Below, one piece after another: positions 1 to 31,593 of a DNA stretch of 64,000 bases (the stretch's first letter is position 1; every line of letters begins with the position of its first letter). The DNA is from Paraspadella gotoi (taxonomy: Eukaryota; Animalia; Chaetognatha), in NCBI GenBank assembly GCA_051294375.1, contig CM119271.1, positions 6,883,632 through 6,947,631 of the forward strand, given 5' to 3'. Under the pieces are notes generated by a model that was not told the DNA's origin, did no database searches, and was given only the letters and a program-made list of their open reading frames with translations. A program made the translations under genes and the position numbers.

Positions 1-361
1 GATCGCGCACCTCCTCGTTCCCTTTGGCGATATCCTCGCGCGGGGCATTGTACTTGCGTTGCCACTCGAACTTAACCTCTGCCTGGCCGAGGGCGGCGGC
101 CTCTTTGGCCTCTAAGTCCTGTTTCCGCGCCCCGGGCGGAGGTTCATACATGAAGGAGAGGCCAAGTTTAGCCTTTTCGTTACCGAGCAGCTGCTTGTTC
201 TGAAACAATTCCTGTTCACGCGCGTATTGTGACCGAAGATCCGCCTCTTTTTGCTCCCGCAGCTTCTTCTCCTCCTCTTTCATCCATATTCTCTTTTGGT
301 TGTCACGATTGGCAGGATGAAAATCCTTTTTCATCATAAAGTTCTCGAATCCCTTCCCCAT
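1..361 (-). CDS. CIR1: Corepressor interacting with RBPJ 1 (CIR1), 5' part; runs off window start
   Basis: Manual translation from ATG at 361: MGKGFENFMMKKDFHPANRDNQKRIWMKEEEK...KLGLSFMYEPPPG...KFEWQRKYNAPRE, matching the Cir_N domain and the CIR1 KFEWQR motif. Not in the ORF track. Confidence 0.9.
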   Translation of the reverse strand, partial: MGKGFENFMMKKDFHPANRDNQKRIWMKEEEKKLREQKEADLRSQYAREQELFQNKQLLGNEKAKLGLSFMYEPPPGARKQDLEAKEAAALGQAEVKFEWQRKYNAPREDIAKGNEEVRD

Positions 362-577
362 CTTGGCGGTTCGGGTTGCGTCTTTTTGAAAACGAATAAA
401 ACTTGCTAAATGAAAATAAAATGTCAATATCATGAGCAATTGCTTATATCAACATTGGTTACAGAATGCATATATGTTTATGCAAGCAAATGAAGAAAAA
501 ACTATCGGCTAAAAATCTAAATAACATTTTCTTTTCTACGACATGAAAATTGTCCACATCACGCAGAAGTCCGGCGG

Positions 578-1600
578 TCAATGGCCTCCAATCGGGGGTA
601 TCTCGCCTCCCCACTGAGCACAAAGGGTCACGTAGACGTATGCCTGGATGAGGCAGACGGCCAACTCAAGGCCCATGAACGCCGTTTGGGCGAGGAACAA
701 AATGGGACCTCCGATCATCCCACAATTCTCGATTCCCTCAGAACAAAGTGCCAGCAACACATGACCCGCCGTCATGTTGGCCCCGAGACGAACGGTCAGC
801 GTCAGAGGTCTAATCAACAGGGAAATGCTCTCGATCAGAACCATGGCAGGCATTAGAACGCCGGGGGTTCCCACAGGTACCAAGTGAGCGAGCATATCTT
901 TCGGCGTATGGGCCCATCCGTGGATGAGTTGGGCCGACCAAACGCAGACTGAAAGACAAGGAAGGACTGGAAGAATCAGGGCCACCGGCGCGGAAGTCAT
1001 TGGGACGATGTAAGGAATGAGACCGGCGAGATTGAGAATAGCTATGGAGAGCATCAGAGGCGGGAGAGGAGATAGGGCTAATTGCGTCTTTCTCTTGGCA
1101 TCGAATGCAGAATCCGTCCAGAGGTCCCAAATATTATCGCCGTAGCCTTTGACGACGGCATTGTAAGCGTGACCGTTGCCGCCCAAGAAGATAAAGCTGC
1201 TGTGCGGATGATTCTTGGGAAGTCGCCCAAAAAGGAGTTTCATCTTGTCTTTTGACTTTTCCTCGTAGCCGATCATAGGCTGAAGCTGATCTGGACCCGT
1301 CTGTATCATTAAAATCTTTGGCAAAAATATAACGCTGCCAACGGAAAGAGCGTAAAGGAGACCGGTGGTCCCAACTGGATCGAATCCCATGAAGATGGTC
1401 CTCCTCTGCCGGACAATGCAATTGAGCCCAAAGCGACTATCCCCTAGCAAAAATTTTCTGTTGGTAGCAAACCTTTCTAACTTTTGACTTAAATAGGACA
1501 ATGACCCATAAGCCTTTTGGCAAGTTCTAAACTGATAACTGTTAACGACGTTAAAAAGTCCGATTTTTCCCGCTAAAGCTCTGCCCGCAATGGTTGCCAT
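578..1600 (-). CDS. ATP6: Nuclear-encoded mitochondrial ATP synthase Fo subunit a (ATP6), copy A, with ~68-aa N-terminal presequence-like leader
   Basis: 340-aa intronless ORF in the standard code. Subunit a signature AHLVPVGTP..LMPAMVLIESISLLIRPLTLTVRLGANMTAGHVLL...LELAVCLIQAYVY with the essential Arg and Gln. IFMGFDP corresponds to the invertebrate ATP6 N-terminal LFSxFDP motif. Confidence 0.95.
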   Translation of the reverse strand: MATIAGRALAGKIGLFNVVNSYQFRTCQKAYGSLSYLSQKLERFATNRKFLLGDSRFGLNCIVRQRRTIFMGFDPVGTTGLLYALSVGSVIFLPKILMIQTGPDQLQPMIGYEEKSKDKMKLLFGRLPKNHPHSSFIFLGGNGHAYNAVVKGYGDNIWDLWTDSAFDAKRKTQLALSPLPPLMLSIAILNLAGLIPYIVPMTSAPVALILPVLPCLSVCVWSAQLIHGWAHTPKDMLAHLVPVGTPGVLMPAMVLIESISLLIRPLTLTVRLGANMTAGHVLLALCSEGIENCGMIGGPILFLAQTAFMGLELAVCLIQAYVYVTLCAQWGGEIPPIGGH

Positions 1601-1779
1601 TTTTCGAAAATCAATTAATTAAAAATCTGCAAATAAAAAGAAGACATTTTTATACAAACTCATACGATAATCTAAATTTGATATCATGATTAAAGTATTT
1701 TAAAAGCTTAACCAACACTTCATAAATGCTACAGTTGGGTACACTTCTTATATTTAAAAATAAAAGTTAGTGACTTTTT

Positions 1780-2790
1780 TTAGTGTCCACCCTCTGGGGG
1801 AATCTCTCCGCCCCATTGCGCGCAAAGGGTGACATAAACATAGGCTTGGATCATGCAAACGGCCAGCTCGAGTCCCATGAACGCCGTTTGCGCCACGAAG
1901 CCCAAAGCGCCGCCGATCATCCCGCCGTGCTCTATGCCCTCGGAGCAGAGAGCCAGAAGAACGTGACCGGCCGTCATATTCGCCCCGAGACGCACGGTCA
2001 GCGTCAAAGGGCGAATGAGTTGGGAGATGGTCTCGATGAGGACCATCGCGGGCATCAGAGGTCCCGGTGTGCCGACGGGGACCAAGTGGGCCAGCATGTC
2101 CTTGGGCGTCTGGCTCCATCCGTGAATGAGCTGCGAGGACCAGATACAGACGGAGAGACATGGCAGGACCGGAAGGATGAGGGCCACCGGTGCAGAGGTC
2201 ATAGGAACCATGTAGGGAATTAATCCCGCCAGATTAAGAACCATGATAGAGACCATCAGCGGAGGCAGAGGAGCCAGGGCCAGTTGGGTTTTCCTCTTGG
2301 CGTCAAAGGCGGACGCGTCCCAAAGATCCCAAATTCCTTTTCCATAACCATCGACCAAAGTGTTGTAGGCGTGACCGTTGCCGCCCATGAATATGAAGCT
2401 CCCGTGGGCGTGATTTTTCGGGAGTCGGCCGAATAAGAGGCGCTTGGTGGCCTCCTTCGGCGATTCGTCGTAACCGGAGAGGGGGTGAACCCTGTCAGGG
2501 CCGGTCTGAGCGGTCACCAATTTGGGCAGAAAGAGGACGCTTCCAACGGACAGAGCGTAGAGCATCCCGGTCGTTCCGACGGGGTCAAAACCCATGAAGA
2601 TGGAACGCTTTTGATCCAAAGTAAGCTCGTTCAAGAGTTTTCCGTTGACGTTGGTTTTCGAGTTGAGCTTCATTTGTCCCACGAAGCTCAGCGATGCGAA
2701 GGATTTCTCCAAAGTTTTCATTTGATACCCAGCGTTGAAGCCTTTCAGCAAAGATGGTTTTGCCAAAAGCATCCTCAATGTGGAAGCCAT
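1780..2790 (-). CDS. ATP6: Nuclear-encoded mitochondrial ATP synthase Fo subunit a (ATP6), copy B, with ~63-aa N-terminal presequence-like leader
   Basis: 336-aa intronless ORF and tandem paralog of 578..1600, with the same motifs (IETISQLIRPLTLTVRLGANMTAGH; LELAVCMIQAYVY). Confidence 0.95.
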   Translation of the reverse strand: MASTLRMLLAKPSLLKGFNAGYQMKTLEKSFASLSFVGQMKLNSKTNVNGKLLNELTLDQKRSIFMGFDPVGTTGMLYALSVGSVLFLPKLVTAQTGPDRVHPLSGYDESPKEATKRLLFGRLPKNHAHGSFIFMGGNGHAYNTLVDGYGKGIWDLWDASAFDAKRKTQLALAPLPPLMVSIMVLNLAGLIPYMVPMTSAPVALILPVLPCLSVCIWSSQLIHGWSQTPKDMLAHLVPVGTPGPLMPAMVLIETISQLIRPLTLTVRLGANMTAGHVLLALCSEGIEHGGMIGGALGFVAQTAFMGLELAVCMIQAYVYVTLCAQWGGEIPPEGGH

Positions 2791-3001
2791 TTTTATATAT
2801 TACGAAGAAGTGTTTGAATCTTATCTGAAAATTAGTAAAACAAAATAATAAAATCTGTAAATGAACTACTAAGTTTAATTAAGACTTAAGAAAATCAAAA
2901 ATATAAAAATGATTATTGAATAACTAAGATTAAAAGCAGAGTAAAACTAATGACCCCACACAAATGAATGGTTTTAAAGTCTAAACCAAACAAAAATAGT
3001 T

Positions 3002-3449
3002 TTATTTTTTAACATTATCACTGGAATATTCAGTGCACAATAAATATCCAAGACCTAAAAAACATGTGACCGGTGGAAGGAAAGAAAGCATTTCCATGCC
3101 AATGGAGTGTAGTGTATGACAAGCGCCAATCATGATTGTCATCAGTAAAAGTGATGCAATACGCTTAGTGGTAAGCGAACATTTCGTTAGTAATAAATAA
3201 CCACCGACAGCCTCAGCGACGCCGACACTAAAAGAAAATCTCAATTATCGATGGGTCTGATTTTGATTTTCTTCAATTACATCACCTGCGTAATAACAAG
3301 CAACTCGGTGGCTTCAATCCGAATGGAAAATGTTCCGCAAACACATCGAACTGTTCGCCCATGGGGGAATAAGGAATGACTTTTAAAGATCCAGCCAGTA
3401 CATAAACAGCCCCTAACGCAAATTCTAACGTCTTGTTGCTATTTACCAT
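3002..3449 (-). CDS. TMEM35/NACHO-like (DoxX-family) small membrane protein, 2 exons
   Basis: ATG at 3449 and a 58-nt GT-AG intron at 3228..3285 join MVNSNKTLEFALGAVYVLAGSLKV...FDVFAEHFP...LLRS to VGVAEAVGGYLLL...IASLLLMTIMIGACHTL. The G..E..GG.LL and MIGA..T pattern fits DoxX/TMEM35. Confidence 0.7.
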
Positions 3450-3655
3450 TCTGTGACAAACAATCAAATAAATTGAAAGATGACTCCAATGACGAAAATG
3501 CCAGTTAATATGAATGTTAAAAAAGTCGCTGGGGGGGTGTTTATTTTTAATTTAATTTCATTACCAAAGCTTCTGTAGTCTTTTATAGATCTTTCTGATC
3601 ACTTTTAAAGAGTTCAGTAGTTTTATCCGAAGGCATTAGTTGGTGTTTTTTTTTT

Positions 3656-3980
3656 TCACGCTACGGACCACGGGGGGACCATGGGTTGAGGGTTCTGAAG
3701 GTACGACATCACGACGGCGGAGATGGACAACATGAAGCTCGATAATAACTGTTTCGTATCTTCGGACCCCGAGAATTGGGCAAATCCAATGACGGAACAA
3801 AATATCGCGACCCACGCCGCCCACTTGACTTTCATCATGAGGCCGCATATACTGAAGATCATTCCCAACAAATTCATGTAGTCCGGAGTGGATCCTCCAT
3901 TGGACCGGAATCGGAAGGCGGGGGTTGGAAACGATGAATGTTACCGGGACGTCGGGGATCGTTTGATTATTGACGGACAT
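3656..3980 (-). CDS. WDR83OS: PAT complex subunit Asterix (WDR83OS); two apparent 1-nt frameshifts in the 5' part
   Basis: [28 protein letters not shown]...[32 protein letters not shown] is diagnostic. The N-terminus MSVNNQ / [24 protein letters not shown] / TPDYM is split over three frames. Confidence 0.85.
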
Positions 3981-4177
3981 TTTTTTTAATCTCTCTTCAA
4001 ATAATTAATGCTTTGTTAATACAATTAAATCTGTTAAAAAAAAAGGGAAAGTGATTAAGATTTAATCAAGATTAACTTCAATTTAAAAATAGCGGTCATT
4101 TGATTATTCTTAAACGTAACTTTAGATAATTACCAATCATTAATTACACAGCTTTTCCTCGTCAATTTTAAGAAAAT

Positions 4178-6767: not shown

Positions 6768-8490
6768 TTAATTTTTAAAAACTCCCACCACATCGCTACA
6801 TCCATTATCAAAAAAATTTAGACGAAAATGCCTGAAACTTCTCAAAGTCTCAACGACGAAAGTCTTCCATTCACCGCCCCGCCACGATCCGGGTTCGTTC
6901 CGCATAATCGTCACCCACTCGTCCTCTTCACTCAACTTTCCATCGAGACTGATTTTGGACGGGGCGTTGTCCACGTGACGAGTCGCTCTAATCTCAACGA
7001 AAAGTATTTTCTGTGGGGCGGTGAAAGGATCTAACTATCCACTCGTGAAAGGGCCGACCCTTCAACTTGGCGCTGATCCACTTGCTTCCTTCTTCGGCGG
7101 AGAAAGCGTTTTCCGGCCTTGTGTATTGACTAAGAAAGGAGCTGGCAAAAACACCGGAGTATCCTTCCTCCACGGCCCCGATCTCCTGACGAAACTGGAA
7201 AGGTATGAACTCCCTAGAATTGACGAGAGTGGTGGAAGATCAGTCATCCATGCGGAATCCCCTCCTGAATCGTAATCAATAAATCTCTTCGTCATCTGAG
7301 ACGTAAACAACGCGGTGGCGTCGGAGGTCTCAACAAAAGTCACGCCACTCAAACTGTGAATGCGATAGGCCGTTTCCAAGTCGACGCGTCTCCCACGGTT
7401 AAGAAATCAACGGTAGAGCCCCAAGTTTCCGACGAAGAGACACGTCGGTCTCTGAGTCAAAAGGCACACCGGTTAGATCACGAATAACAACGGCTTCGTC
7501 AAGAATTTCCAAATCCAAGGATTTAAATGCTCTGGTAACCTTCTCGCGCGTCAAATCAACGATTTTTTCGCGAGCATAGACCTTTGTGTCTAATTTTATC
7601 ACAGAGTCGATCCAACATACGTGTTTCCAGCACATCGCCTTTTCTGACACACAAAACATGTCTACGAAGCAGTCCATGCGGTTGGAGAACAGTCTTTGGA
7701 GATCCTCGTCCTGAGTTTTTTTGAATAACTTTTGCATACTCACCAGGAAATCGTCTTCGGCGTAAGAGAGCACATGCTGCACCGCTTTTACTAATTGATC
7801 CTGCTTTTCGAATCCTTTGGCTTGAGACAAAGTCGATGCGAAAAAGCGATGGAGTTGAACTTCCATTTCGAAGGCCGAGAGCAAAAGTCTCATGCGATCG
7901 GAATGGAACGTTCCTTTCCCAAAGGCGTTGTTCAATTCCATCTCCAGAAACTGAGCTATTTGGGGAAGCGCCTTTAATTTTCTCAAAAAATAAAAACATT
8001 CTTCGATCGTCGGAATAAACAAATTCCGGAATGACGTCTGCGATTGCTTATTCAGAAAGAGCATCACGACGGTGATCAATATCAATTCTATAGCTTCCGC
8101 TTTGTCTGTTGCTTTGGAGACGACACCGAGCGCAACGATGGCTTCTTTTTTGGCATTTTCCAATTCGTGAGTAGCGGACTCATCATTAATGTCGTGTCCA
8201 AGTCGAATTCTATAGCCAAAAAATAGTTGTTTTTTTTCAACGAAAATTATGATTACAATTTTGCTCAAAAAGGAAACTCATTTTGGTTATCACCTCGCCA
8301 GGTCAAAATGAATCTGAGCCGCTTTTAGCTCTTTCGCTCTCAAGGCGTCGACTCCTCGCTGCAAGGTCTCGAGTTGAGGTTGAAACTTGGAAGCCCACTC
8401 TTCCTTCAAAAGTTTAGACGCGAGCTTCGCAGTAGCGAAAGAGACGACGACAATTAAAGGTTTGGCGGCGACTTTGGCCGCTACTTCCAT
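6768..8490 (-). CDS. Uncharacterized protein: helical N-terminal region plus C-terminal F5/8 type C (discoidin/galactose-binding-like) domain; frame disrupted in the 3' half
   Basis: Exon 1 from 8490 (MEVAAK...) splices to the long ORF ending at 7399. Downstream frames give FASSFLSQYTRPENAFSAEEGSKWIS..PFHEWIVRSF / TAPQKILFVEIRATRHVDNAPSKISLDG...EWVTI...WKTF...RSFRHFRLNF, which resembles F5/8C. At least 3 frameshifts are needed to join them. Confidence 0.5.
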
Positions 8491-10574: not shown

Positions 10575-13115
10575 TTAGACGCTTGTTTCGGAATTTAAGC
10601 GCAAAACAAAACGGTTTTTTTTGGGATCCACTACTTCCTCCATTAGACTGACGTGGGGAATTTTTTTCACCTGAAAAAAAAAAGTAATATCGGACTTTGA
10701 AATTTGCTAAATTTATTATTTAAATTTATGTTGTATACCTGACATAAAAGAGAAATGTCCGACTGCTTCAGTTGAAACATCACGCCGTCTTCAACGGTTC
10801 GAGAAAGAACGTGTTCACAAACGAGGATCCATTGTTCGGTCGGCATTACAGATTTGTCAGATTGATGAAGGACGGAAACCTCTTTAAAATATTTTTGCAA
10901 AAATGCCTAAAAAAAGACAAAAGCTGAACTGGATTGGACTGGATAATATTTTTTAGCTTAGTGATAAATACTTAATATATAATAGCCGATTCGGGAATTT
11001 CCTATTACAAGATACTAATGTAACTTAAATTCAGTACCTTTGGAGTCATATCATGTTGTATACAGGTAGCGAGGTGTCGAAGTACAGAGTCCATTGTATG
11101 CCAGGGTTGCTGCCGAGTAATGCGGAGAAACTTCTGCAAAGCTCGAGCCATGGAGGGAAAAATAGCCTAATACGATAAAAGTTACATTCGAATTAAAATT
11201 TCAAAAACAGAAAAGTTCATGCGAAGTTACCTGCGCCGCCTCATGAGGGTTCATTGGAATAGCGGGTCCTGAGTTTTCTCGTTGATTCATTCGGCAAATG
11301 TGCGTAAACGCGTCTTCCGCAGCCAAAATTAGTCGCGCCTTTCGCTTCCGAACGCGACGTTCGTACTCCATCTCCTCGTAAAATCGGTCGTTGTGGCCAC
11401 CTTTTTCAGACCTGATGAATCAGTAAAGATATAAAATCATCAAAGGGACTTGTTATGATTCCTTATTCATCACAGTCTTGGTACCTTCTAGAATTTATTG
11501 CGGTGATGGCGGCAGTTTGGGCAGAAAGGTCACTTTTGGCGTCCCCTTCCAAAGAGTAAACCTTAAATTTTGAAGCGTTGCCTGCGCTTTTCCCTTTGCC
11601 GCTACGCGAGCCGGGAATGTTTTCCAGGAAGGGATTGTATGTAGGAAATTCTTTGTAATATTGTTCCAGGCAATGAACGGCGGCCCGTTGGATGCTGTAA
11701 AGATAAACGGGCAAAATAACAGGAGTAAGACAACTTAGTAAATAAACGGATAATTTTTACTTTGCTTTTACTAATTTCATACAAAAATATTCTTGCCTGA
11801 ATTCTCCCATTGTTATCGAACGGGTCTCTCCGTCGGGCGACCTCGAGATCTTGACGATGTATTTGGTGGAAACGTGACGAAGTTCGAGCAGCACCACGGC
11901 GAGGTAATGGACAAAGAGGAGGGCGTCGACGAGGGACACGGCATAAGAAACGATCTTGTGATAGTCGTTGTAGCGCTCTTGCACGATACGGACGCCGTAA
12001 AAGAGCCAAAAGCTGAAAGTCAGAACGAAGACGAGAAAGAGGACCATCGCTCTGAGAGGCGGTTGGGGTTGGGGAAGGGGGAGTGAGTTAATAAAATAAT
12101 ACGGTCTCCTGATCGCAGCCAACTCGATAAAATTAAATGACATACAAAGTTATAAATAAAAGAATGAATTAAAAACCGTTCTCACCTAAACATAAAAACC
12201 CTGGGCAGCGTCGCCTTTGGGACCCTGAAAAAACAGGCCCAAGTTCCGAGCAACAAAATAAAAAGTTTGAAAGCCAATGAAATGAGGAGCCCCTCGCACT
12301 CCGGACGGCATTGCATGAGGTCATATTGAAGGGCTTCCCACTCATTCAGACTGGTCTTTCGGCAGAGCAAATCCGTGCCGCAGGACTGCAGCGTCGAGTT
12401 GAAGAAGCCCGGAATGACGTGAAGTTTCGGAATCAGCACCATGGCGACGGGAGAAATGAAGGCGAGCACTGAAACGACGGACACGCACGTGGGGGACACC
12501 CAGCGACCGCATTCGGATCCGATAAGGCGATCGGGGCGACGTATTTTCGAAAGATCCTCCATGCTGTAACCTTGGACGGAATGAGGAAATTGTTACGTAT
12601 TATTTTTTCTTTAAAATCTAAAAAAAAAAAAATCGGAAAACATATTCGTACCAGTATAGGCGCTGGTCGCGTCGGTGATGGCCGTCGCAGCGTCCCATCT
12701 GTCGTCGTCGTCGTTTTGCGGAATGACTTGCACCTCGATCCCGTGGTTTGCCCCGTAGGGACCTTGGCGTCTCCCCCCGTGACGCCGACCTTCGTCGGCT
12801 TCGTCGCCACTCGGGGCGTTTATGGTGACGGAGCGATCGTCGCGACTGCGACCGTCGCCGGAACGTGAACGACGCGTGTGGCGCTTGTGGTGGTGATCAC
12901 GATTTGGACTGTCATGGCCTCTAGAATGTCATTAATTGATAAGTACATAGCTCGTATAAAATTATTCTTTGAAATCGGAATTATTAATTTTAAATTAATA
13001 ATTATTATTACTTGTGATGCTTGCCCTCGCGGCTGTGGGAACGGTGACCCCTGTTCCTTCCTTCTGATCTGTCGGTTTGATCAGATCTAACTGATTCGTT
13101 TTCTAGATTTCGCAT
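10575..13115 (-). CDS. VANGL: Vang-like/Strabismus planar cell polarity protein, multi-exon
   Basis: N-terminal ENESVRSD and TTAITDATS Ser/Thr cluster, [57 protein letters not shown], and C-terminal PDZ-binding RLNSETSV* at 10575. Confidence 0.95.
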
Positions 13116-13700
13116 CCTTCCGTGTTTTTTTTGGTTTTTTTTTTTTGCTTTTTTTTTTTTTTGCTAAAAAAAACGAGTTAACCCAAAAATAAAATGGACC
13201 TCGATGTCATATTTAGCTCCTGAAATTAATGGTTATCTTTACACTCACGTATCCAATGACAAAAAATTGAATTGTACGTACGTCACCTAAATTATATATT
13301 AGAAACTAAATATTTTAGGTAACTTTTAAAAAAATTCATACAAAGGATTAGTTGGGATCAAACTCGATACCGAAAAAACTAAAAAAGTGAAGAACTTTCC
13401 CATATGAAAATCCAGAATGGAATTTGTTTAGACACGGAAGAAACGAGATCATGATTTCAAAAGGAAAAATAGTAAACAAAATTAGTACAAGATAATTATA
13501 ATGATCACCACATTATAGAGAAATAAGCATCACATTGTCGATTATTTTGTATGAAAAATCTATATGGGTAAGGGAAAAAATGACTTAGTAATTTGTGTAG
13601 TGTTTCGGCCAGCTTAGAATAGCGCCGCCAATTTTCTTGAGTACAAATTCGCAAGAACCGCATATACACCGTACAGAGTAGAGAGATTGTTCCTTCCATT

Positions 13701-14533
13701 TTATCCCATCTTTACTTTCGACGTTTGAATAATGCCAACTATCACTCCGAAGAGTCCGATGACCGAAGCAAAAATTTCCACGACGATCATTTTGACAAAC
13801 AAAGACGGATTCTAAAAACAAAAATTCAACGATAACCATTAAAGGATAATCTGTTTTCGTCATTTGGAAATGATTAGAGGGTGCAATTCCAAATACCTGG
13901 GCATCTGTGAGTGCAGCTCCTGAGCCGACAATTCCGACCGAAATGCCACAAACGAGATTGCAAAAACCGACTGTCAACCCACCTCCAAAAATAGCAAAGG
14001 CGGAAGCGTAATTCGTGAGGACCTCCTCGGGAGTTGCATTTTTCTGACTGAAAATTTATGACAAATATATACGAAAGATATTAAACAAATTAAAAATACA
14101 CCGAAACTTTACTCGAAATCTTTGATCATAGTGCCCATGACTATGGCCATAATGATTCCGTAGATAGCGACGGCTTCGCAGAAAATGATGCTGACCAGGT
14201 TCTTCGTTCTAATTCTTGGGGCTTTCACGCCTCCGCCCATAATGCTAGACCCCGTTGTGTATATTCCGGTGGCGGCGCCAATGACCGAGAGCGAGATAGC
14301 AAAGGCGATGCCCAGACACGCCCAGAAGTAAGGAGATACTTCGCGGAAAAACCAACTGATGTCGAACTAGTTAAAGGAATAGCTTTTAGTTTCAGGAAAA
14401 ACAATTCAGGGCTGTTACTTCTGTTTACTTGCACTCCACGTCCGCTAAGAATGTAATACAGCCCCACAAAGGACAACGCTACGATAGCAACGGTTGATAT
14501 GTATGCAGCGTGTCCGTACACACCGTAAGCCAT
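13701..14533 (-). CDS. ATP6V0B: V-ATPase 21 kDa proteolipid subunit c'', 4 exons
   Basis: [59 protein letters not shown]; [24 protein letters not shown]; [16 protein letters not shown]. Confidence 0.95.
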
Positions 14534-14626
14534 GGTTCTGAATACAGTTGGATTTTCTTCTAAGAATAATAGAAAATAAATACAACAAAAAGCACTTTAT
14601 TATCAAAACCAACAACGAATTAAAGT

Positions 14627-16250
14627 TCAACAATAATCAATTTGCTCAACGTCAGATTCCTCGTCCTTATCAACAAGGACCGCAAACTGCTCCTCTGTTT
14701 GTGCGGGCGAGGACGACGATGGCGGCCACTCCACGTCCACCTTCTCTACGTCCAGTTCGAGGATATCCACGTCCTTCGACATAATCTCCTTTAGGTTGGG
14801 CTGGGTACGTCCCAGGTCGCCATGCACGAACTCTTTGATGTAAGTTCCGGCATCGGTATCCAGATCCACACGAAAGTGACGTTCGTCAACGAGAGTGCCG
14901 TTGATTTTATGGACGCGACGGGGTCGGACGGCCAACGGTCGTCGGTGCAGAACTCTAAAACCAACAAAAGTTTTTTATATTTTCTTCTAAGTCCTCGAGA
15001 AATATATTTATATAACTGACAAATAACCTTATAGGAGTCTTTTGATAGATATCCAAATCTCGTATTTGTGACAACTTTTTCATATCCTCCTCAGTCAGTT
15101 CCGAAGCGGAGAAACAAAGAGCCGTATAATGTTTTGTCTTTTGGTTTTCGCTCTTTCTAAGGATAGCGGTCTGTCGTTCCGTCACTACCGCCAGCCGATC
15201 CACACGAATACTTTTCGAGGAGGCGTTAATGGCGTTCTCTGTTGCGTTGAGCTCGACCGACGAGAGAACAGTTCGTCGCGGATTGAGGCACTCGACGACG
15301 AAGGGTCGCCCGTCTCCCAGCATGAGCACGTCGATATCCTCGCGACCAGAGGAGGAAAACTTGTACTGGTCAGCGGGGACGAGCTCCTTGACCCTGTTCA
15401 CGATCAGTTCTTCAACCGAAGATTCCCTCAGACGTACACCATCGACGACCCACGGAGTCTGGGGCAGCTCGCGCGAAAATTTGTTGTACCGGCCCCCAAT
15501 GAAGAGAGGTTCCTGTTCCAGCGTCAAAGAGAAAACGAACGCGTCGGGCGCGGCCTCTAAACTCTGCGAAGGAGGAAATGGAAAGTGCGGCTCGAGAACT
15601 CGGCGGTTACGACTGGCGAAAAACCCGGAGACTGACTTTCTGCTGAATATTTGGCTTTTCATTTTTTTTGCACGTTTTTGCCGGTTCGACTTCATGACGA
15701 AAGTTTCCGGATCGAGAAGTTCGAGGGCGGCGAAAAAATCCGACTCCTCTGCAGCGGAGATCCCGACTTTGAGGTCAAACACGCCGTTCGTTCGATATGA
15801 CAATCCGAGTTTTTCCGGGAGTTCTTCAATCAACCTAGTCTTAAGCGCTTGTTTTGTTGACACAGAATGCTCCTCAAGGTCAGTAGGGGTCAGAGAGGGA
15901 AACTTGTCCCGGAGCCACATAGCGAGCAACGTCTGTCGGATCTCGATTGTCGGTACCGTCGGTACGGAGAGGACGAAATGGTCGGCGTCATAGTTGGCCT
16001 CCAAGAGCTTCATGCGGACATATTCTACTAGTTTTCGAAACTGACGGTCGCCCAGCAATCCAAGGCAGACGAAGCACTGGGAATCAGAGATTGGCGTTTC
16101 TTGAGCTGCTGAGCATGGGACCGGCTCCAAGCTTGCCTCGCCAATGAAATCCACGAATCCTTTGTAACGTCGCAGGCATCGTTGGCAGCATCCACTTTCC
16201 GAAAGGGCTTGCTGCAATTCGATCCGATCGAGTTTAGTTTTCCCTTCCAT
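14627..16250 (-). CDS. PUS10: tRNA pseudouridine synthase Pus10, 2 exons
   Basis: CCQRC and CFVCLGLL zinc motifs, GRYNKFSRELPQTPW, FSSSGREDIDVLMLGDGRPF (catalytic Asp), QKTPIRVLHRR, AGTYIKEFVHGDLGRTQP. Confidence 0.95.
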
Positions 16251-16352
16251 AACAAGTTTTTCTGTGTCTCAGAAAATAAAACTAACAAACATAAAAGTTG
16301 CAAGACGTAAGAGAGGCTTGAAAAGATGTTGGACCTGAAATTAGGAATTAAA

Positions 16353-16997
16353 TTAAGAAGGAACGAGCTGTTGAGGGGAAGACTGGGGCAAGTTCGACGT
16401 TTCGTTTTCATTCAAGCCGACAGGTTTTTGAAGCTGTAACTGTTGCATCTGTTGTTGAACGTTACTTTGTTGAGGCTTTGAAGTCGTCGGTGCAGAGCCA
16501 GGAGCCGTCGTCGAAACGGGTGTCGGTACAGAAGTCATTGAGGGAGCTAAAGGTCCGGCCGACGGGCTATCGGGACTGGCCACGGGGCTGCCGAGTTTCT
16601 GTCGGTTGATGTCGTTGATGACGCGATCGAATCGCGCCACTCGTTTTTGAGCACTCTTGGGCGTCTTTCCAGGAATTCGAACTCGTGATGGCGTAACTGG
16701 TCCAGCCCCGTTGTCGTCGGCGTCGAATTCATAACCGGAGGGAGACGTCACCTCTACATTGGAAGCGGCGACTGAAATCTTCTCGGCGTTGTCGACACCG
16801 ACGGCGGGTTTCGACTTTTTCCCCGTTTGTGGAACTCTTCGGCCCGGACACTTCCAGTCGAGAACCAGCTCCTCGCCGCGGGCCAACGCCTCGTAGTGGC
16901 TGACGATTTCTTCGGGCGAAGGTTCCCAAGCGCCGTTGGCACCGTATTTGTTTTCGTCGTCGGAACAATCGACGCACCAATCGGCAGATTCATCCAT
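16353..16997 (-). CDS. PAGR1: PAXIP1-associated glutamate-rich protein 1 (PA1)
   Basis: WCVDCSDDE, WEPSPEEIVSHYEAL...LVLDWKCPGRR, EFDADD and ARFDRVINDINRQK match PAGR1 family motifs. Confidence 0.85.
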   Translation of the reverse strand: MDESADWCVDCSDDENKYGANGAWEPSPEEIVSHYEALARGEELVLDWKCPGRRVPQTGKKSKPAVGVDNAEKISVAASNVEVTSPSGYEFDADDNGAGPVTPSRVRIPGKTPKSAQKRVARFDRVINDINRQKLGSPVASPDSPSAGPLAPSMTSVPTPVSTTAPGSAPTTSKPQQSNVQQQMQQLQLQKPVGLNENETSNLPQSSPQQLVPS

Positions 16998-17092
16998 CGT
17001 TTATATTCTTAAAACTGCGAGCAAAAACATCACTTAAATTTAACAATAGAAAAGAAACAACTGACACGACGGACTCGACGGATAAAAAAACT

Positions 17093-18749
17093 TTAGACGC
17101 TGGCGATTGGGACGTCGATATCTTCCAGAGTAACAGATCTCCAGGCACGTTTCTCCTGTTTCTTTTTTTTGTACTTGGTCTGTCCCTTCTTCTGTCTGAC
17201 TCCCGGAGCCAACAAGTTTCTTTTTTTGAAGTTGTCGTAGCGGTCTTCGAGAAGATTGCCCTCCGGAACGAGGGAGCGCAAATCGGAGACTAATTCATGA
17301 CTCAACTTGACTTCGACGTCCATTGGCTCATACTTGGTTTGACCTAAACGACGGGTTGTTTCCGCGCGTTTTGACGAGAGCGATTCCTTGAGGGAAAAAA
17401 GTGACAAAATTAAATAATAGGTTATTGTGGCGGTATATTTACACCGCCTCACGTCCACTATCCGTCAGCAAAATCCATTGGCTCAGAGGGGGAACACACC
17501 ATCCCAGGGGTAGTGTTCCATCCACAGTCCTGAGGGTCGGAAGCCCCCAAAGCCAACAGTTAGATGTCCCATCCCAATGGGCATCACAGGCAACCCGGCT
17601 GTTGCCATATTATTACCATTTACAAGTATCGAACCTTTTTTCGCATTCTTTCCAATCTCTCCCGCTCCAGCGCCCCGATCTCTTTCTTGATGGACTTCAA
17701 TCTGCCGAATTCCATCTCCCTCTGCTTGGCCGACTTCATTTTTTCCCTCTTCTGTCGAAGACTTTTCTGCTCCTTAGCTTTCCTCCTTTGCTGCTTGGTC
17801 TTGCGTTTGACGGTTTTCTTAGCCGTAGACTTTTCTCTTTGCTCCAAATTTTCGCACTCTGGTTCTTCGGGTGCGTCTCCGCCTTCCAATCCGCCGCTCA
17901 TTTCCTTTATCCAGTTGGCCTCCAGACCTTTGGCCTCCTCAGTACCGGGAAACTTTTCGTCCAGTTCCCGCTCGAGCTTTTTCTGAGCTTTTAGCTTGAC
18001 TTCCTCCACTCGGTTGGCAACGGACAAGTGATCAACGAAATCCTTAAGATCGGGATTGTAGGAAGCTCCCGGGTGAGGGACCGGGATGGCCGGGAGTTTT
18101 GAGGCGAGATTTTTCATGGCGTCGCGACTGTTTGGCGGGGCGACGCGGGTTTGCTGGAGGAAGGAATGAAAGGAATTATCAAAGTTCTAACACAGCAAAC
18201 TCGGAATTTCGCAAAACCAACCTTGGTGATGCTCTTGTGAAAAGCCAAAGGATCATCATCGTCTTCCTCCTCCTCGATCGCCCACAGATCCCTCTGGATT
18301 ACGGCCGCTCCTTCTTCCTCCCTCCTCGCAGCTTCCTTCTTTCGCTCATTGATGGCGTGTTGGCGTTGTCCGGCGCGCAGTCTCTTGATTAACCTCGGAT
18401 CGGTCTGGCGCCGCTTGACAAGCGGAAGACGTTTTCTCTTTTTCCCTTTTTCTCCGACCTGCGGGGTGTTGACGACGGGCACGCCGTCGTCTTGGCGCAA
18501 ATTAGCGAAGCATCTAAGCGGACGTTCGGCGGCGAGCTTCTTCCTGGATACGGTTAATCTGGTGAGGGAGACGGGAGGAGGCGCAGAGTCGATGAAAAAC
18601 AGCTGATCGTCTTTCTTATCGGCGACGATTCCACCGGTTCTTTCCTGACTCCTCTTGTCGTCGAGATATTCTTCGATGTCCGCGATGTCTGTGTGTTTCT
18701 TCCAGTTCTTTTTCAAATGTTTCACCACTTTTTTCTTCGTGGGAGGCAT
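17093..18749 (-). CDS. NOP53: Ribosome biogenesis protein NOP53 (GLTSCR2), 3 exons
   Basis: KKNWKKHTDIADIEEYLDD..ERTGG, LFFIDS (exosome-recruiting AIM-like motif), PHPGASYNP, RLGQTKYEP..VEVKL..EL...LRSLVPEGNLLEDRY. Confidence 0.92.
17423..17606 (-). ncRNA. Candidate structured intronic ncRNA (snoRNA-like) in the last NOP53 intron
   Basis: GC-rich block in the 248-nt intron 17387..17634 with several hairpins (ggcaac/gttgcc, ggaacac/gtgttcc, ttggct/agccaa, ggcggt/accgcc), a C-box-like tGTGATG, CTGA motifs and a terminal ACA. Confidence 0.4.
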
Positions 18750-18987
18750 TTTGAAAACTATGCAACGAAAAATCAACTATTAAATCTTTAAATATTTCGC
18801 TATAATTGGTCCGAGTCAAATTGTTAAGGCAGAGCATCGGAACTGTAGAATTCTCAATGAGCATTATTCCACAATTCGTCATGTTTTATTGAATACCTTT
18901 TAATTACAGAACACGTGAGCGAATAAAAACAAACCAGGCGAAGCTCAAACCGACGGTCATTTGTTACGACTCGTCGGGACTTTACCC

Positions 18988-19521
18988 TCATCCGCAGTCG
19001 TCTTCATTCTCGGGAGGTTTTTTCAAATTTCCCTTGGTATCGACGAAAGTCAAATTGTAAAATTCGCTCGAGTCGGGCTTATTCTGCAACCGTGGATCAA
19101 CCATTTGCGCACGAGGAAATTTTGAGTTATCGCGATAAACGGGAATTCTTTCTGGCGCGTTTTTCACTTCTAAATCTACCCTTTCTATTCGCCACCCTTT
19201 TCCGATGTCATCTCTACTCGACCATGAGTAAAGCTTGCCTTGGTTCTGTCCACCAGAGAGCGGGATTGTGAGACGTGCAGTGAACGGCGTGATAGCGACA
19301 CCGGGGCTAAAAATGTCCAAGGGGAGGTCCACAATCGGTTCGCCTAGCGCTCTTTTCGCGGGTTCAAAAGCGTGAAGCAACCTCATAGTAGTTCGGTAGT
19401 ATTCTGAAGTCCTTATTTTTTTCCGCTGGCTGTATCGAAGGAACGCCATTCCACCCAAACCCGTCCACGTTATAATCAATGACACTCCGGATAGTTTCAT
19501 TAAAGGCGAAAGGCGCTTCAT
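18988..19521 (-). CDS. COA1: Cytochrome c oxidase assembly factor 1 homolog
   Basis: Single TM segment followed by SEYY...L......ALGEPI...ARLTIPLSG...GKLYSWSSR....WRIERVDLE, the Coa1/Tim21-like pattern. Confidence 0.85.
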   Translation of the reverse strand: MKRLSPLMKLSGVSLIITWTGLGGMAFLRYSQRKKIRTSEYYRTTMRLLHAFEPAKRALGEPIVDLPLDIFSPGVAITPFTARLTIPLSGGQNQGKLYSWSSRDDIGKGWRIERVDLEVKNAPERIPVYRDNSKFPRAQMVDPRLQNKPDSSEFYNLTFVDTKGNLKKPPENEDDCG

Positions 19522-20230
19522 CTGAAATCACAACAAAAACAATAAAAAACGAAAGAAAAAAGGACAGAATGTATTTGACTATTTCTACATGAGGTATAAA
19601 TAGAAACTACATCATAATTTTCGTTTGCCATCAAAAGCCATTTGGCGTTTGCAAGTTCATGAAAAAATGATAAAAAAAAATATTGAAAACACGGAAGTCG
19701 AGATTAAATCTTTTTCTTATGATTTAAATTCTGGTGAATGACCGTTAAGATCGTACTACTCTGAAAGTGTTATAAGTTAAAGAAATTAGGTTATGAATTT
19801 TTTTTTTTTTAAAGTGTGTAACATCCAAAGCCATTCCGTCGATCATTCATTCTGAGCTGTTAAGTTACTGAAGGACACTTACATACGCAACAAGTAACAT
19901 TTCATTAAAACTAATGACGAAAACGTCCCGACAAAGCCACTGGCCTCAATCGGCGAAAAACATCCTTCATCTAAAAATTCATCAGCCCATGCATCGCAAT
20001 CTTGAGATCACCACGGCAGAATATCCTTCCTTTCATATCCAATAAAGCAATGGGACGCCAGATAAGAATATATTAATCCAAACAAAAAATCGATATATCC
20101 ATTTCACAATACCCAATATTATTGAATATAGTTATTTATATATATGGATAAGAGACCGGTGCGCAAAATGAAAAAGCAGATGAAGAAATGATATTCGATT
20201 TTTCTTTGACTTTGGCATGCGGACGTCGAT

Positions 20231-28889: not shown

Positions 28890-31350
28890 TTAAAGAGTGA
28901 TGTCCGGAGCCGTTGGCCTCTTCTTCCTGTAAAAATCTTTCGCTTTTTCCTGAATTTGTTCGAGATTCGTAACTTCATACACTCCACCAGCAATTTTCTT
29001 AGTGCATTCCCCTTTTGTCTTGTCCAGCAGTTTTACTTCCGGTCGAACATTCAGAATGCTGCATTTGACCAGAACCTGAAAAAGCATTGTCACGAGCGTG
29101 TTAAAAGCTTGTAGTATTTTAAAAGCCAACATCTTAAGCCAAAACGATTTTCGCTCTCACCTGGACGTCGTTTGCACGCGGCCATTTCCAGAACCGTTGA
29201 GTGACCTTGAAGTTACGATCCTCCATGAACTTGATCTTTACCTTATCCCCTTTTTCGATGACATCGAGAGCTTTTCCGATGTACCACCCGTCCTCGAAAA
29301 GGCCAACAACCATGTCGCCCACGTTGGGCGGCCAATACCAGGCGGACTTGTTCGCAGCTCCAGCGTTTTCCTTGGAGCTCTGATTGGTGCCGGTTTTGCA
29401 CCGTCTGTTTTCGGAGATGCAAGAGAGCGTTTTTGACTCGCTTTTTTCTCGATTTGCCCTGGACATCGACAGAGGTTTGTTGCAGCACACAATACGATCG
29501 TCTTCCGCCTCTTTCTGTCGTTTCGTTTCTTTTTTCGGTTCCAAATCGTTTGAGGATTTAGTCTCGTCAGAAGGAACGTTTTCGCGTCTCCGAAGTGTTC
29601 TAATCTTTGTAGTGGCCGCCACGTCGAACTTAGTGGAAAGGTTGCAGCAGCTTTTCTTATCCCCGGCAGCGTAACGTCGCGACTTGGCGGACGAAGAAGA
29701 AGACTCGTCTTCAAAAAAATCCCGGTCCTCGGTTGACGAAGTCTCTTCCAACGAACACGATTCTATCCTCCCCACCAACTCCGTCAATTCGGGATTTATA
29801 GTTTGGCACAAAGACCTTCTCCGCTTTCTATTTTTAAATACGACCTGAGAAAATCGGGGGGACGGAGATTCTAGAGGATCATGAGTAGTCTCAGTCTTGA
29901 CGTGGCCGGCGATCCCTTCAAAACCAAACGGATTTCCTCTAGATACCGATGGACAGGGGCCAGTCACTCCCGTGGGAGAGAAACGAGAGGGACGAAGAAT
30001 TAGACGGCCCGAAGAGTCGCAGCTGTAGGCGAGGAGCATCTTCTGAATGTCCGAAGCAGGCTTCTTGCAATCGGCCGACTGTTCTTTATCGCATATTGGC
30101 GTGACTTCATTCTCGAGTGGAGGCTGGATCGTCTCGGCCGATTCACCCTCTTCCTCGAGAGACACGAACTCGACGAATTTTCTCGGAGTGGCCGGAGTTT
30201 TTGCCGAGTCCCTTTGCTTTCCGGCAATTCGTTTGCTGCGAATTCGCGTCACGCCTAAATCGTCGTCGTCGATCGCAAGTTCTTTTCTCGTCTCTTCGGT
30301 CGCTACTATCGAGATTTTCGAATCTGTGACCGGCGCGTCCGCTTCCTCTTCGGTTCCATCGGCCAGGTAGTCGATGACCTCTTTTAAAAAATCGCCTAAC
30401 CCTTGTGAGCTTCGAAAGTCGACACGTTCGTCGATAGTGGCCAAGTCTAAGCGCTTGCTGTCTAATTCGTCTTCCCCTCGAGTTGGCGACGACAGCGGTG
30501 AAGTGGACTCTGACGACAATCCTCCACGACGCTCCACTTCAGCTAAATCCGCGCTCTTGCGGCGCGATGTGGCGGCGTCGTTTTGACCATCGCTGCGAGC
30601 CCGTACTCGTTCTGGCGACAACAAGGAGAACCGGCGGCAGCGGTGGGATTCCGGAGAAATTTTCTTTGAGATCAAGGTAGCACGGTCGAACGCGGAAAGT
30701 CTTGAGAACTTTGTCCTGCCATTTAACGTCGTGAGCTTTTGTCCTTGGCAGGAAATGGCCTCAACGACGTCCTTGTCGAAAGAATCGAGTGGGAATGCGT
30801 TTAAGTCCAACTGCTTCAAAACTTCGACGTCCTTTTTCGCGTCGTCGTTTTCGTAGCGCGAGTGGCACGTAAACACGTGCTGTCTTATGTCGGACTCGTT
30901 GAAGCTTTCGTAGAAGCAATGGGGGCAAACGAAGTCGAAGGTGTCGCTCTGGAGCCAGGAAATGCGACGCCGCTTGCCAGAAAAAAAAACTTGGTCTTCG
31001 ACCGCGGCGTCGCCAACGCGGGACAAGAATTTCTTTCGAAGCCGGTTCCCATGAACGATAGATATATGGCGAATATAGACGCTGCGGAAGACGAAACCCT
31101 TGCCGCAACTCTTGCACGGTATGGGAACGTGATGGTCTCTGAGGTGGCGTAGGTAGAAAGGGCGGAATGTGAAGAGTCGATTGCATCTTAAACACAATTG
31201 ACGGGATTTGATACTTCTCAGCGTGGAATTCCTCGTCGAAAGCTCGATAGGCGAGGGTATAAAAGTGCTTTGCGCCATGAGAGGGAATTTATCGCCAGCC
31301 CCTTCATCCGAGGAACAGCCTATCGAACGTCGCTTGCGCCTTTTGTTCAT
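28890..31350 (-). CDS. C2H2 zinc-finger protein with C-terminal Tudor/SH3-like domain, 2 exons
   Basis: Three C2H2 fingers (CLRC..HLRDH, CKSC..HISIVH, CPHC..HVFTCH), a long low-complexity linker, then VGDMVVGLFEDGWYIGKALDV....VKIKFM...FWKWP. Spliced to the 28890..29075 exon. Confidence 0.75.
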
Positions 31351-31593
31351 TTCTTTTTACTATTGTGAAGTATGCATGGCAACAGCTAAAAAGAAATAAA
31401 TTCAGAAATTGTTACCGGTAAAAGTTATTTCATAATTATTCCAAAGATAGGGATTTAAAAAAAAATAAATATCAATTAAAAAGATGAAAATGACTAGTGA
31501 CAAGGCTACAGGCGAATCAAATTATTCCACCGGACAAAAGTAATAATAAACAAAAATATTGAATTATTTTGGAAAGAACGTCAGATACGTGAC

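Follow-up and report, generated by a model that had tools for sequence, protein, structure and literature searches.

Two nuclear ATP6 genes in a chaetognath, likely replacements for an atp6 lost from the mitochondrial DNA of the phylum

A 64,000-base stretch of the genome of the chaetognath Paraspadella gotoi (GCA_051294375.1, contig CM119271.1, positions 6,883,632 to 6,947,631; hereafter the window) carries on its minus strand two intact nuclear genes, atp6a and atp6b, for subunit a of the F-type ATP synthase (ATP6). In nearly all animals this subunit is encoded by mitochondrial DNA (mtDNA). We consider it very probable that these genes, by way of predicted import leaders, replace the atp6 that chaetognath mtDNA does not have. 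The loss of atp6 from chaetognath mtDNA has reportedly been cited from 2004 onwards. A reading made earlier from the letters of the window alone had proposed that this is probably the missing gene, moved across a genetic-code barrier, and the neighbouring genes, the use of the standard code, the marks of selection and a spliced leader now support that proposal. Thus, the relocation of ATP6 in chaetognaths is, with high confidence, real and its products are very likely functional, with import and the steps that follow it predicted.

Results

The two complete subunit a open reading frames (ORFs) described by the sequence-only reading are indeed present. Both are intronless coding sequences (CDS) on the minus strand, identified as ORFs with profile matches: atp6a (578..1600) encodes 340 aa with an a-type leader and a TGA stop, and atp6b (1780..2790), at a spacing of 179 bases, encodes 336 aa with a b-type leader and a TAA stop. 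The HMMER/Pfam check that had been proposed bears out their identity, each ORF scoring ~103 bits against ATP-synt_A (PF00119, cut-off 33.9) and ~145 bits against TIGR01131 (cut-off 102.6). A sequence search of the PDB returned Artemia subunit a first (E 1e-26), followed by mammals, yeast, a bacterial-type chain and Polytomella. Human Arg159, Asn163, His168, Glu203 and Gln210 align to Arg267, Asn271, His276, Glu308 and Gln315 of atp6b, respectively, and these atp6b residues, together with Glu253, are invariant across 11 aligned rows. The essential arginine corresponding to human Arg159 is located by alignment at 1990..1992 (minus strand) in atp6b and, from alignment and codon, at 788..790 (minus strand) in atp6a, where it is Arg271. 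In the AlphaFold2 model of mature atp6b, the predicted local distance difference test (pLDDT) score averages 63 and is mostly 77-90 in the core helices; a long helical hairpin is predicted (helices 180-225 and 227-264, mostly pLDDT 77-90), and the score is below 50 for model residues 28-79 and 91-104. Foldseek with this model ranked Artemia (9b0x chain N), ovine and human subunit a first. Family cut-offs and channel residues, with the hairpin fold modelled for atp6b, confirm both ORFs as F-type ATP synthase subunit a.

The invertebrate mitochondrial code, which the donor mtDNA would have used, reads AGR as Ser, ATA as Met and TGA as Trp. As had been noted, Trp is written as TGG with no internal TGA (five TGG and zero internal TGA in each CDS). 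The open standard-code frame, also noted earlier, is not taken as proof of the code, both frames being open as well under table 5, the invertebrate mitochondrial code. The claim of a standard code itself stands, because among the four CDS compared AGA/AGG codons align with CGN or Lys codons in other copies and ATA mostly with ATC/ATT, and because a table 5 reading of atp6a replaces the conserved IRP with ISP and loses the stop. Between the mature parts of atp6a and atp6b, the proportion of nonsynonymous differences (pN) is 0.12 and that of synonymous differences (pS) 0.76, and all six pairs of the four CDS give a similar picture (mature pN 0.08-0.12 versus pS 0.63-0.88); the leaders evolve faster (pN 0.35-0.53). 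Total GC and GC at third codon positions (GC3) are 0.51 and 0.57 for atp6a and 0.56 and 0.69 for atp6b, in agreement with the earlier statement that the genes resemble neighbouring exons: GC lies at 0.50-0.55 and GC3 at 0.55-0.70 in seven of the eight nuclear stretches measured, the lower one being a leucine-rich repeat (LRR) stretch (0.38/0.40). From these sequence comparisons, the view that both genes are under purifying selection, in the standard code and with nuclear codon usage, is supported.

The nuclear location is carried by a 7,722-base contig of run X1, a run not flagged as a possible source of the window DNA. Its match to 1-3227 is free of differences; it then jumps over 3228-3285, which reads GT..AG on the minus strand, and resumes up to 3874, so that CIR1, atp6a, atp6b, a spliced TMEM35-like gene and Asterix are bridged by a single contig. 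It supports the physical join of both atp6 genes to nuclear neighbours, the join to CIR1 and the TMEM35-like gene being one that the sequence-only reading had asked long reads to establish. The absence of flanking mitochondrial tRNA and rRNA genes also holds: across the whole 64 kb, a tRNA scan found none and no Rfam match reached the gathering score.

To look into the origin, 1.84 billion representatives were searched. Five matches had E <=1e-30, all from the atp6 family itself, and were followed mostly by ~220-aa proteins; among the first ten of the latter, five are named, and these are ATP6 proteins of three arthropods (a sea spider and two crustaceans), a chameleon and a sea slug. In a tree of 56 hand-picked rows, where labels for unnamed rows were assigned from their sequences, the family forms one clade (100/100) with a stem of 1.34, lying within a bilaterian ATP6 group (99/96) and a protostome group (93/82). 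A grouping with seven non-animal mitochondrial or alphaproteobacterial rows, of the kind that by the earlier reading would have refuted its proposal, is rejected (p-AU 0.003, approximately unbiased test), whereas a position of the family outside all the other bilaterian rows, as their sister, is not rejected (p-AU 0.45). The sequence comparison thus supports membership in bilaterian ATP6, and of the bilaterian/protostome-type core that had been described, the bilaterian part stands and the protostome part is not settled.

The N-terminal extensions had been described as basic and poor in acidic residues, and this description holds for all 11 sequences examined, whose first 45 aa include 4-7 basic residues but at most one acidic residue. 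The predicted presequence of atp6a (1397..1600, minus strand) has 68 aa and net charge +10 and ends in QRRT before IFMGFDP, and that of atp6b (2602..2790, minus strand) has 63 aa and net charge +7 and ends in QKRS before the same motif; import is their presumed function. Of 69 family proteins, all close kin, 68 have an Arg at position -2 ahead of IFMGFDP. Mitochondrial processing peptidase cleaves two residues past Arg. Considering this rule and the Arg-X before IFMGFDP, cleavage here would be predicted to restore the ancestral N-terminus: IFMGFDP aligns to LFSIFDP, the start of protostome mitochondrial ATP6, and FxxF[DE] lies within the first 20 residues in 88 of 102 mitochondrial-type rows. 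For protostome affinity, this FDP start gives a better clue than the tree does. A search for a donor of the leader with residues 1-72 of the family protein P0002, among shorter proteins only, matched four of five candidates, all of them fragments of the same family, and thus yielded no donor.

Transcript processing can be followed in contigs of run X8, which behaves like RNA, as judged from its poly(T) ends and a spliced-leader loose end. Poly(T) loose ends on the plus strand at 403 and 2829 correspond to poly(A) ends of minus-strand RNAs. The former delimits a 3' untranslated region (UTR) of atp6a (403..577, minus strand) with its poly(A) site at the CIR1 acceptor, and the latter belongs to the gene upstream of atp6b. 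Trans-splice acceptors are predicted on the minus strand at AG 1627..1628 for atp6a, where an X8 contig ends with 18 non-genomic letters, and at AG 2825..2826 for atp6b, where another contig end lies. At the Asterix acceptor, the reverse complement of an X8 loose end is identical at 19 of 21 positions to the tail of SL2.0, a chaetognath spliced leader whose sequence is given in Table 3 of PMC2481426, as far as that source was available. The last 16 bases of SL2.0 are absent from the window sequence. Among metagenome contigs, 53 candidate stretches gave two further atp6 loci, both starting with bases of this leader: L002, from a relative with a 77% identical protein, opens with 25 of 25 bases of SL2.0, and L001 opens with its final 7 bases. 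It is these spliced-leader matches, and not the ATP6 motif used in the earlier reading, that point from sequence to a host that is very likely a chaetognath. Of the polyadenylated or leader-bearing transcripts that had been proposed as a check, a poly(A) end is therefore at hand for atp6a (in X8, a run of unrecorded type), and the spliced leader on a relative's gene rather than on the RNAs of this species. Contig depth is unable to rank expression, and the short pieces in runs X10 and X11, of low depth, were not used.

AG is kept at both atp6 acceptors, unlike at the Asterix junction, and a leader type ending in AG at the atp6 acceptors is a possibility. Poly(A) sites lie within ~5 bases of the next gene's predicted acceptor (403-407 and 2824-2829), which implies almost no spacer between cistrons. 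The intergenic gaps at the atp6 cluster are 179 and 216 bases; in one chaetognath, according to the available parts of PMC12460157, trans-splicing affects nearly half of the genes, and operons, defined by gaps below 250 bp, hold 18% of them. In relatives, five proteins from European Nucleotide Archive assemblies (P0010, P0114 and P0299-P0301) all diverge from the family at GSFLFM|V, and these protein ends suggest a GT intron at that site.

Sequence adaptation was assessed by comparing 24 related family rows with 33 mitochondrial rows, within helix limits set by us. The 33 were kept from 102 mitochondrial-type rows (Arg <=6, Met >=12) to avoid wrong-code translations, and all 102 give the same direction. 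The mature family protein is longer (273 aa versus a mean of 219 aa) and less hydrophobic as a whole (grand average of hydropathy 0.59 versus 0.97). Insertion energy averages 0.47 over the membrane core of the family and 0.35 +/- 0.05 over that of the mitochondrial rows; in the same core, LIVFM falls from 0.50 to 0.41 and Phe from 0.073 to 0.014, Gly/Ala/Pro/Cys rises from 0.16 to 0.32, and ALIVF is unchanged (0.48 versus 0.48). The gain of Gly/Ala/Pro and loss of Phe may partly reflect the passage from AT-rich to GC-rich DNA. Core Thr is lower in the family (0.053 versus 0.071), although it is higher in helix 1 (0.147 versus 0.040) and slightly so in helices 5 and 6, and the aliphatic-to-threonine adaptation used as a criterion in a 2026 preprint is not seen overall. 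About 50 residues in the hydrophilic region after helix 1 are not in mitochondrial ATP6 and are conserved across the family. In atp6b the hydrophilic region (2290..2520, minus strand) covers mature residues 28-104, mostly with pLDDT <50, and a Pfam scan of 2311-2520, the insert region, gave no match.

Silent sites are saturated between the two window copies, which share 82.7% identity, and their mature parts are 79-83% (atp6a) and 84-88% (atp6b) identical to relatives. Among 54 long-leader relatives, 51 have the a-type and three the b-type leader. The a-type P0001 and the b-type P0055 (from L001) are 97.8% identical in their mature parts, and their leaders share 13 of 39 residues. Such near-identical mature parts behind unlike leaders suggest, from sequence, an old duplication with gene conversion that spared the leader in some lineages.

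One further protein of this kind was encountered. P0205 (272 aa, on a lone Logan contig of 1,098 bases) is an ATP6 with an N-terminal extension rich in Arg, Lys, Ser and Ala, without an FDP start and unlike the chaetognath leader. Its best named matches are gastropods, and in the tree its branch, a long one, falls with mollusc and annelid ATP6 (98/96). This singleton may represent another nuclear transfer, in a spiralian.

The neighbours of the pair lie on the minus strand as well. CIR1 (1..407; Cir_N), downstream, has its ATG at 361 and a predicted acceptor AG at 406-407. Upstream lie the TMEM35/DoxX-like gene (3002..3449), whose GT-AG intron at 3228-3285 is the one skipped by the X1 contig, and Asterix (3656..4032), identified by Pfam match, with an acceptor AG at 4031-4032. 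Of the names given earlier to these neighbours, CIR1 and Asterix are upheld by Pfam, and the name TMEM35-like has weak backing, one of the two exons matching DoxX_2 at E 0.067, under the cut-off. Several 1-2-base indels relative to X1 and X8 occur at 3615-4153, around Asterix, with a compensating pair at 3767/3778; they are alleles or assembly errors in the window. Pfam families were matched by 16 of the 21 scanned stretches, and the window also contains Strabismus, PUS10, NOP53, COA1, Neuralized, p16-Arc, zuotin/DNAJC2 and HIRA. Dense same-strand genes at 11600-19530 (minus strand; Strabismus, a V-ATPase proteolipid-like gene, PUS10, a PAXIP1-associated gene, NOP53 and COA1) are probably further operons. 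Two ORFs that run from stop to stop, at 7399-8277 (292 aa) and 29134-31356 (740 aa), have no Pfam match; the latter shows, by eye, Cys/His zinc-finger-like motifs.

Discussion

These results can be brought together in the following scenario. The atp6 gene would have left the mtDNA of a chaetognath ancestor once and been recoded from the invertebrate mitochondrial code. Its RNA would now be made as part of a CIR1-TMEM35-like-Asterix operon and separated by trans-splicing, after which the leader of 63-68 aa would guide the precursor through TOM/TIM23. A matrix peptidase would cut after Arg-X, restoring the mitochondrial-type N-terminus IFMGFDP. Lower helix hydrophobicity and the hydrophilic insert may ease transit, and the mature protein would enter the inner membrane and act as subunit a against the c-ring. 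An old tandem duplication would have produced the two leader types.

Several points weigh against this scenario. Import, cleavage and incorporation into complex V are predictions, the leaders being assessed from composition and the Arg motif only, and the replacement itself rests on mtDNA reports at the level of the phylum rather than on the mitogenome of this species. The model of mature atp6b is of moderate quality. The core Kyte-Doolittle mean is just slightly lower in the family (1.10 versus 1.20 +/- 0.15), with the drop in helices 5 and 6 and not in helices 1 to 4. The stem is long, and the tree holds no cnidarian, sponge, ctenophore or rotifer rows. On the side of expression, neither X1 nor X8 is recorded as RNA (a tool guesses RNA for X1 and DNA for X8), a single contig spanning several genes is no proof of one transcript, and no poly(A) end for atp6b is among the loose ends listed. 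For the atp6 RNAs of this species the spliced leader is predicted, and the X8 contigs include AG at both atp6 acceptors, whereas the leaders known so far have AAA at their end.

Dead or decaying nuclear copies of mtDNA (NUMTs) are common in genomes, and two intronless CDS that are open in table 5 as well might at first sight pass for such copies. Selection and code usage refute this reading, to which we give practically no weight: pN lies far under pS, the code is used in the standard way with a nuclear GC3, both copies have leaders, a poly(A) end is seen for atp6a and a spliced leader for a relative's gene, and no mitochondrial genes lie alongside. A contaminant, a symbiont or another non-animal donor (bacterium, alga, fungus or protist) is also extremely improbable. 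It is true that the word-index search lists many bacterial matches after the family itself and that the nearest Atlas clusters are plant or algal subunit a; the latter all score <0.9 and were leads only, not used as support. However, HMMER, PDB and fold searches all put animal ATP6 first outside the family, the tree test rejects a non-animal or alphaproteobacterial grouping, and the X1 contig links the genes to animal-type neighbours in a window that also holds Strabismus and Neuralized.

A subtler alternative is a nuclear gene derived from the mtDNA of another animal, such as crustacean prey. The best named matches are arthropod ATP6 (Pallenopsis, Haploginglymus, Ligia and Artemia), and the tree leaves the family unplaced within Bilateria; yet the family is not nested in the arthropod-rich group, a long branch is expected to match slow-evolving rows best, and transfer from a cell's own organelle is the usual route. 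We therefore regard a chaetognath origin as much the better account and a foreign animal source as very unlikely. A different question, compatible with the relocation, is whether one copy is the general subunit a and the other restricted to a tissue or stage (e.g. sperm) or drifting. Both leader types also occur in relatives (the b-type in three of 54), and mature atp6a is more divergent from relatives than atp6b; on the other hand, every channel residue is kept in both copies, which sit in one cluster with UTR-sized spacers. Such a division of labour is possible, and we propose it only tentatively.

If the relocation to the nucleus is as we propose, it answers where the missing chaetognath atp6 went, and indicates that a highly hydrophobic core gene of oxidative phosphorylation is able to cross the bilaterian mitochondrial-code barrier. 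It would likely be a natural working model of moving the disease gene ATP6 to the nucleus. MT-ATP6 disease takes the form of neuropathy, ataxia and retinitis pigmentosa (NARP) or Leigh syndrome, and a natural sequence nearer human ATP6 than the algal and apicomplexan versions is relevant to allotopic expression. It would also put to an independent test the claim, made in August 2026, of a convergence of all ATP6 transfers on threonine substitution, a course apparently not followed overall in chaetognaths.

In their available portions, PMC5470650, PMC5633667, PMC5856267, PMC5374615, PMC7194472 and PMC13121602 report only the loss of atp6 from chaetognath mtDNA; PMC5374615 warns that genes scored as missing may in some cases be highly derived variants, and PMC13121602, of March 2026, still gives chaetognaths as 'lacking atp6' only. 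No description of a nuclear chaetognath atp6 was found in the titles and passages covered from open-access PubMed Central and bioRxiv. The word 'atp6' is absent from the main text and three supplements of PMC12460157 in the form available, and the parts seen of PMC7986045, PMC6942316, PMC11886574, PMC12249979 and PMC8303319 contain nothing contrary. It is probable that the nuclear gene has gone unreported (subscription papers, such as the 2004 mitogenome reports, lie outside the search). The available part of bioRxiv 10.64898/2026.08.04.742770 lists three ATP6 transfers, in ctenophores, chlorophytes and apicomplexans, and makes no mention of chaetognaths. The chaetognath case is probably a fourth, and the first in Bilateria. 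A bolder proposal, which as a whole we think rather unlikely, is that this fourth independent transfer, first in Bilateria, solved import without threonine by substituting Gly, Ala, Cys and Pro for bulky residues, that the ~50-residue insert stands in for ATP8, likewise lost from chaetognath mtDNA, in bracing the stator, that the two old paralogues, with their different leaders, serve different cells, and that P0205 is a further bilaterian transfer.

Among known systems, ctenophores are close in kind. Mnemiopsis leidyi and Pleurobrachia have mtDNA without atp6, atp8 and most or all tRNAs, and their ATP6 comes from a nuclear gene with a presequence (available parts of PMC11384887 and bioRxiv 10.64898/2026.08.04.742770, among others). 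The chaetognath genes differ in their bilaterian-type sequence and protostome-like FDP start, a distinction drawn with no ctenophore sequence in the comparison, and in being a tandem pair in a trans-spliced cluster with ~50 inserted residues; nor do they show overall the threonine enrichment reported for Mnemiopsis in the portion seen of the 2026 preprint. Independence from the ctenophore transfer, as we infer it, rests on the FDP start and host phylogeny. Chlamydomonad algae and apicomplexans likewise combine a presequence with reduced helix hydrophobicity (same preprint, same portion). The algal sequence is distant, Polytomella 6f36_M being the last of 12 PDB matches, and in contrast to both groups the chaetognath gene would have come from mtDNA read in the invertebrate code. 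Oikopleura dioica nad3 is another bilaterian nuclear transfer with a targeting signal in a lineage that has lost most tRNAs (PMC11384887, available part), but it encodes a different, much smaller subunit, and Oikopleura keeps atp6 in its mtDNA. Protostome mitochondrial ATP6, as in Artemia, shares the fold, the channel residues and the N-terminal FxxFDP, whereas the chaetognath genes are nuclear, in the standard code, preceded by a leader, longer and less hydrophobic. Thus, transfer of ATP6 to the nucleus has precedents as a kind of event; what is new is its occurrence in this lineage and across this code barrier, in a predicted operon setting, with an insert and apparently with no overall gain of threonine.

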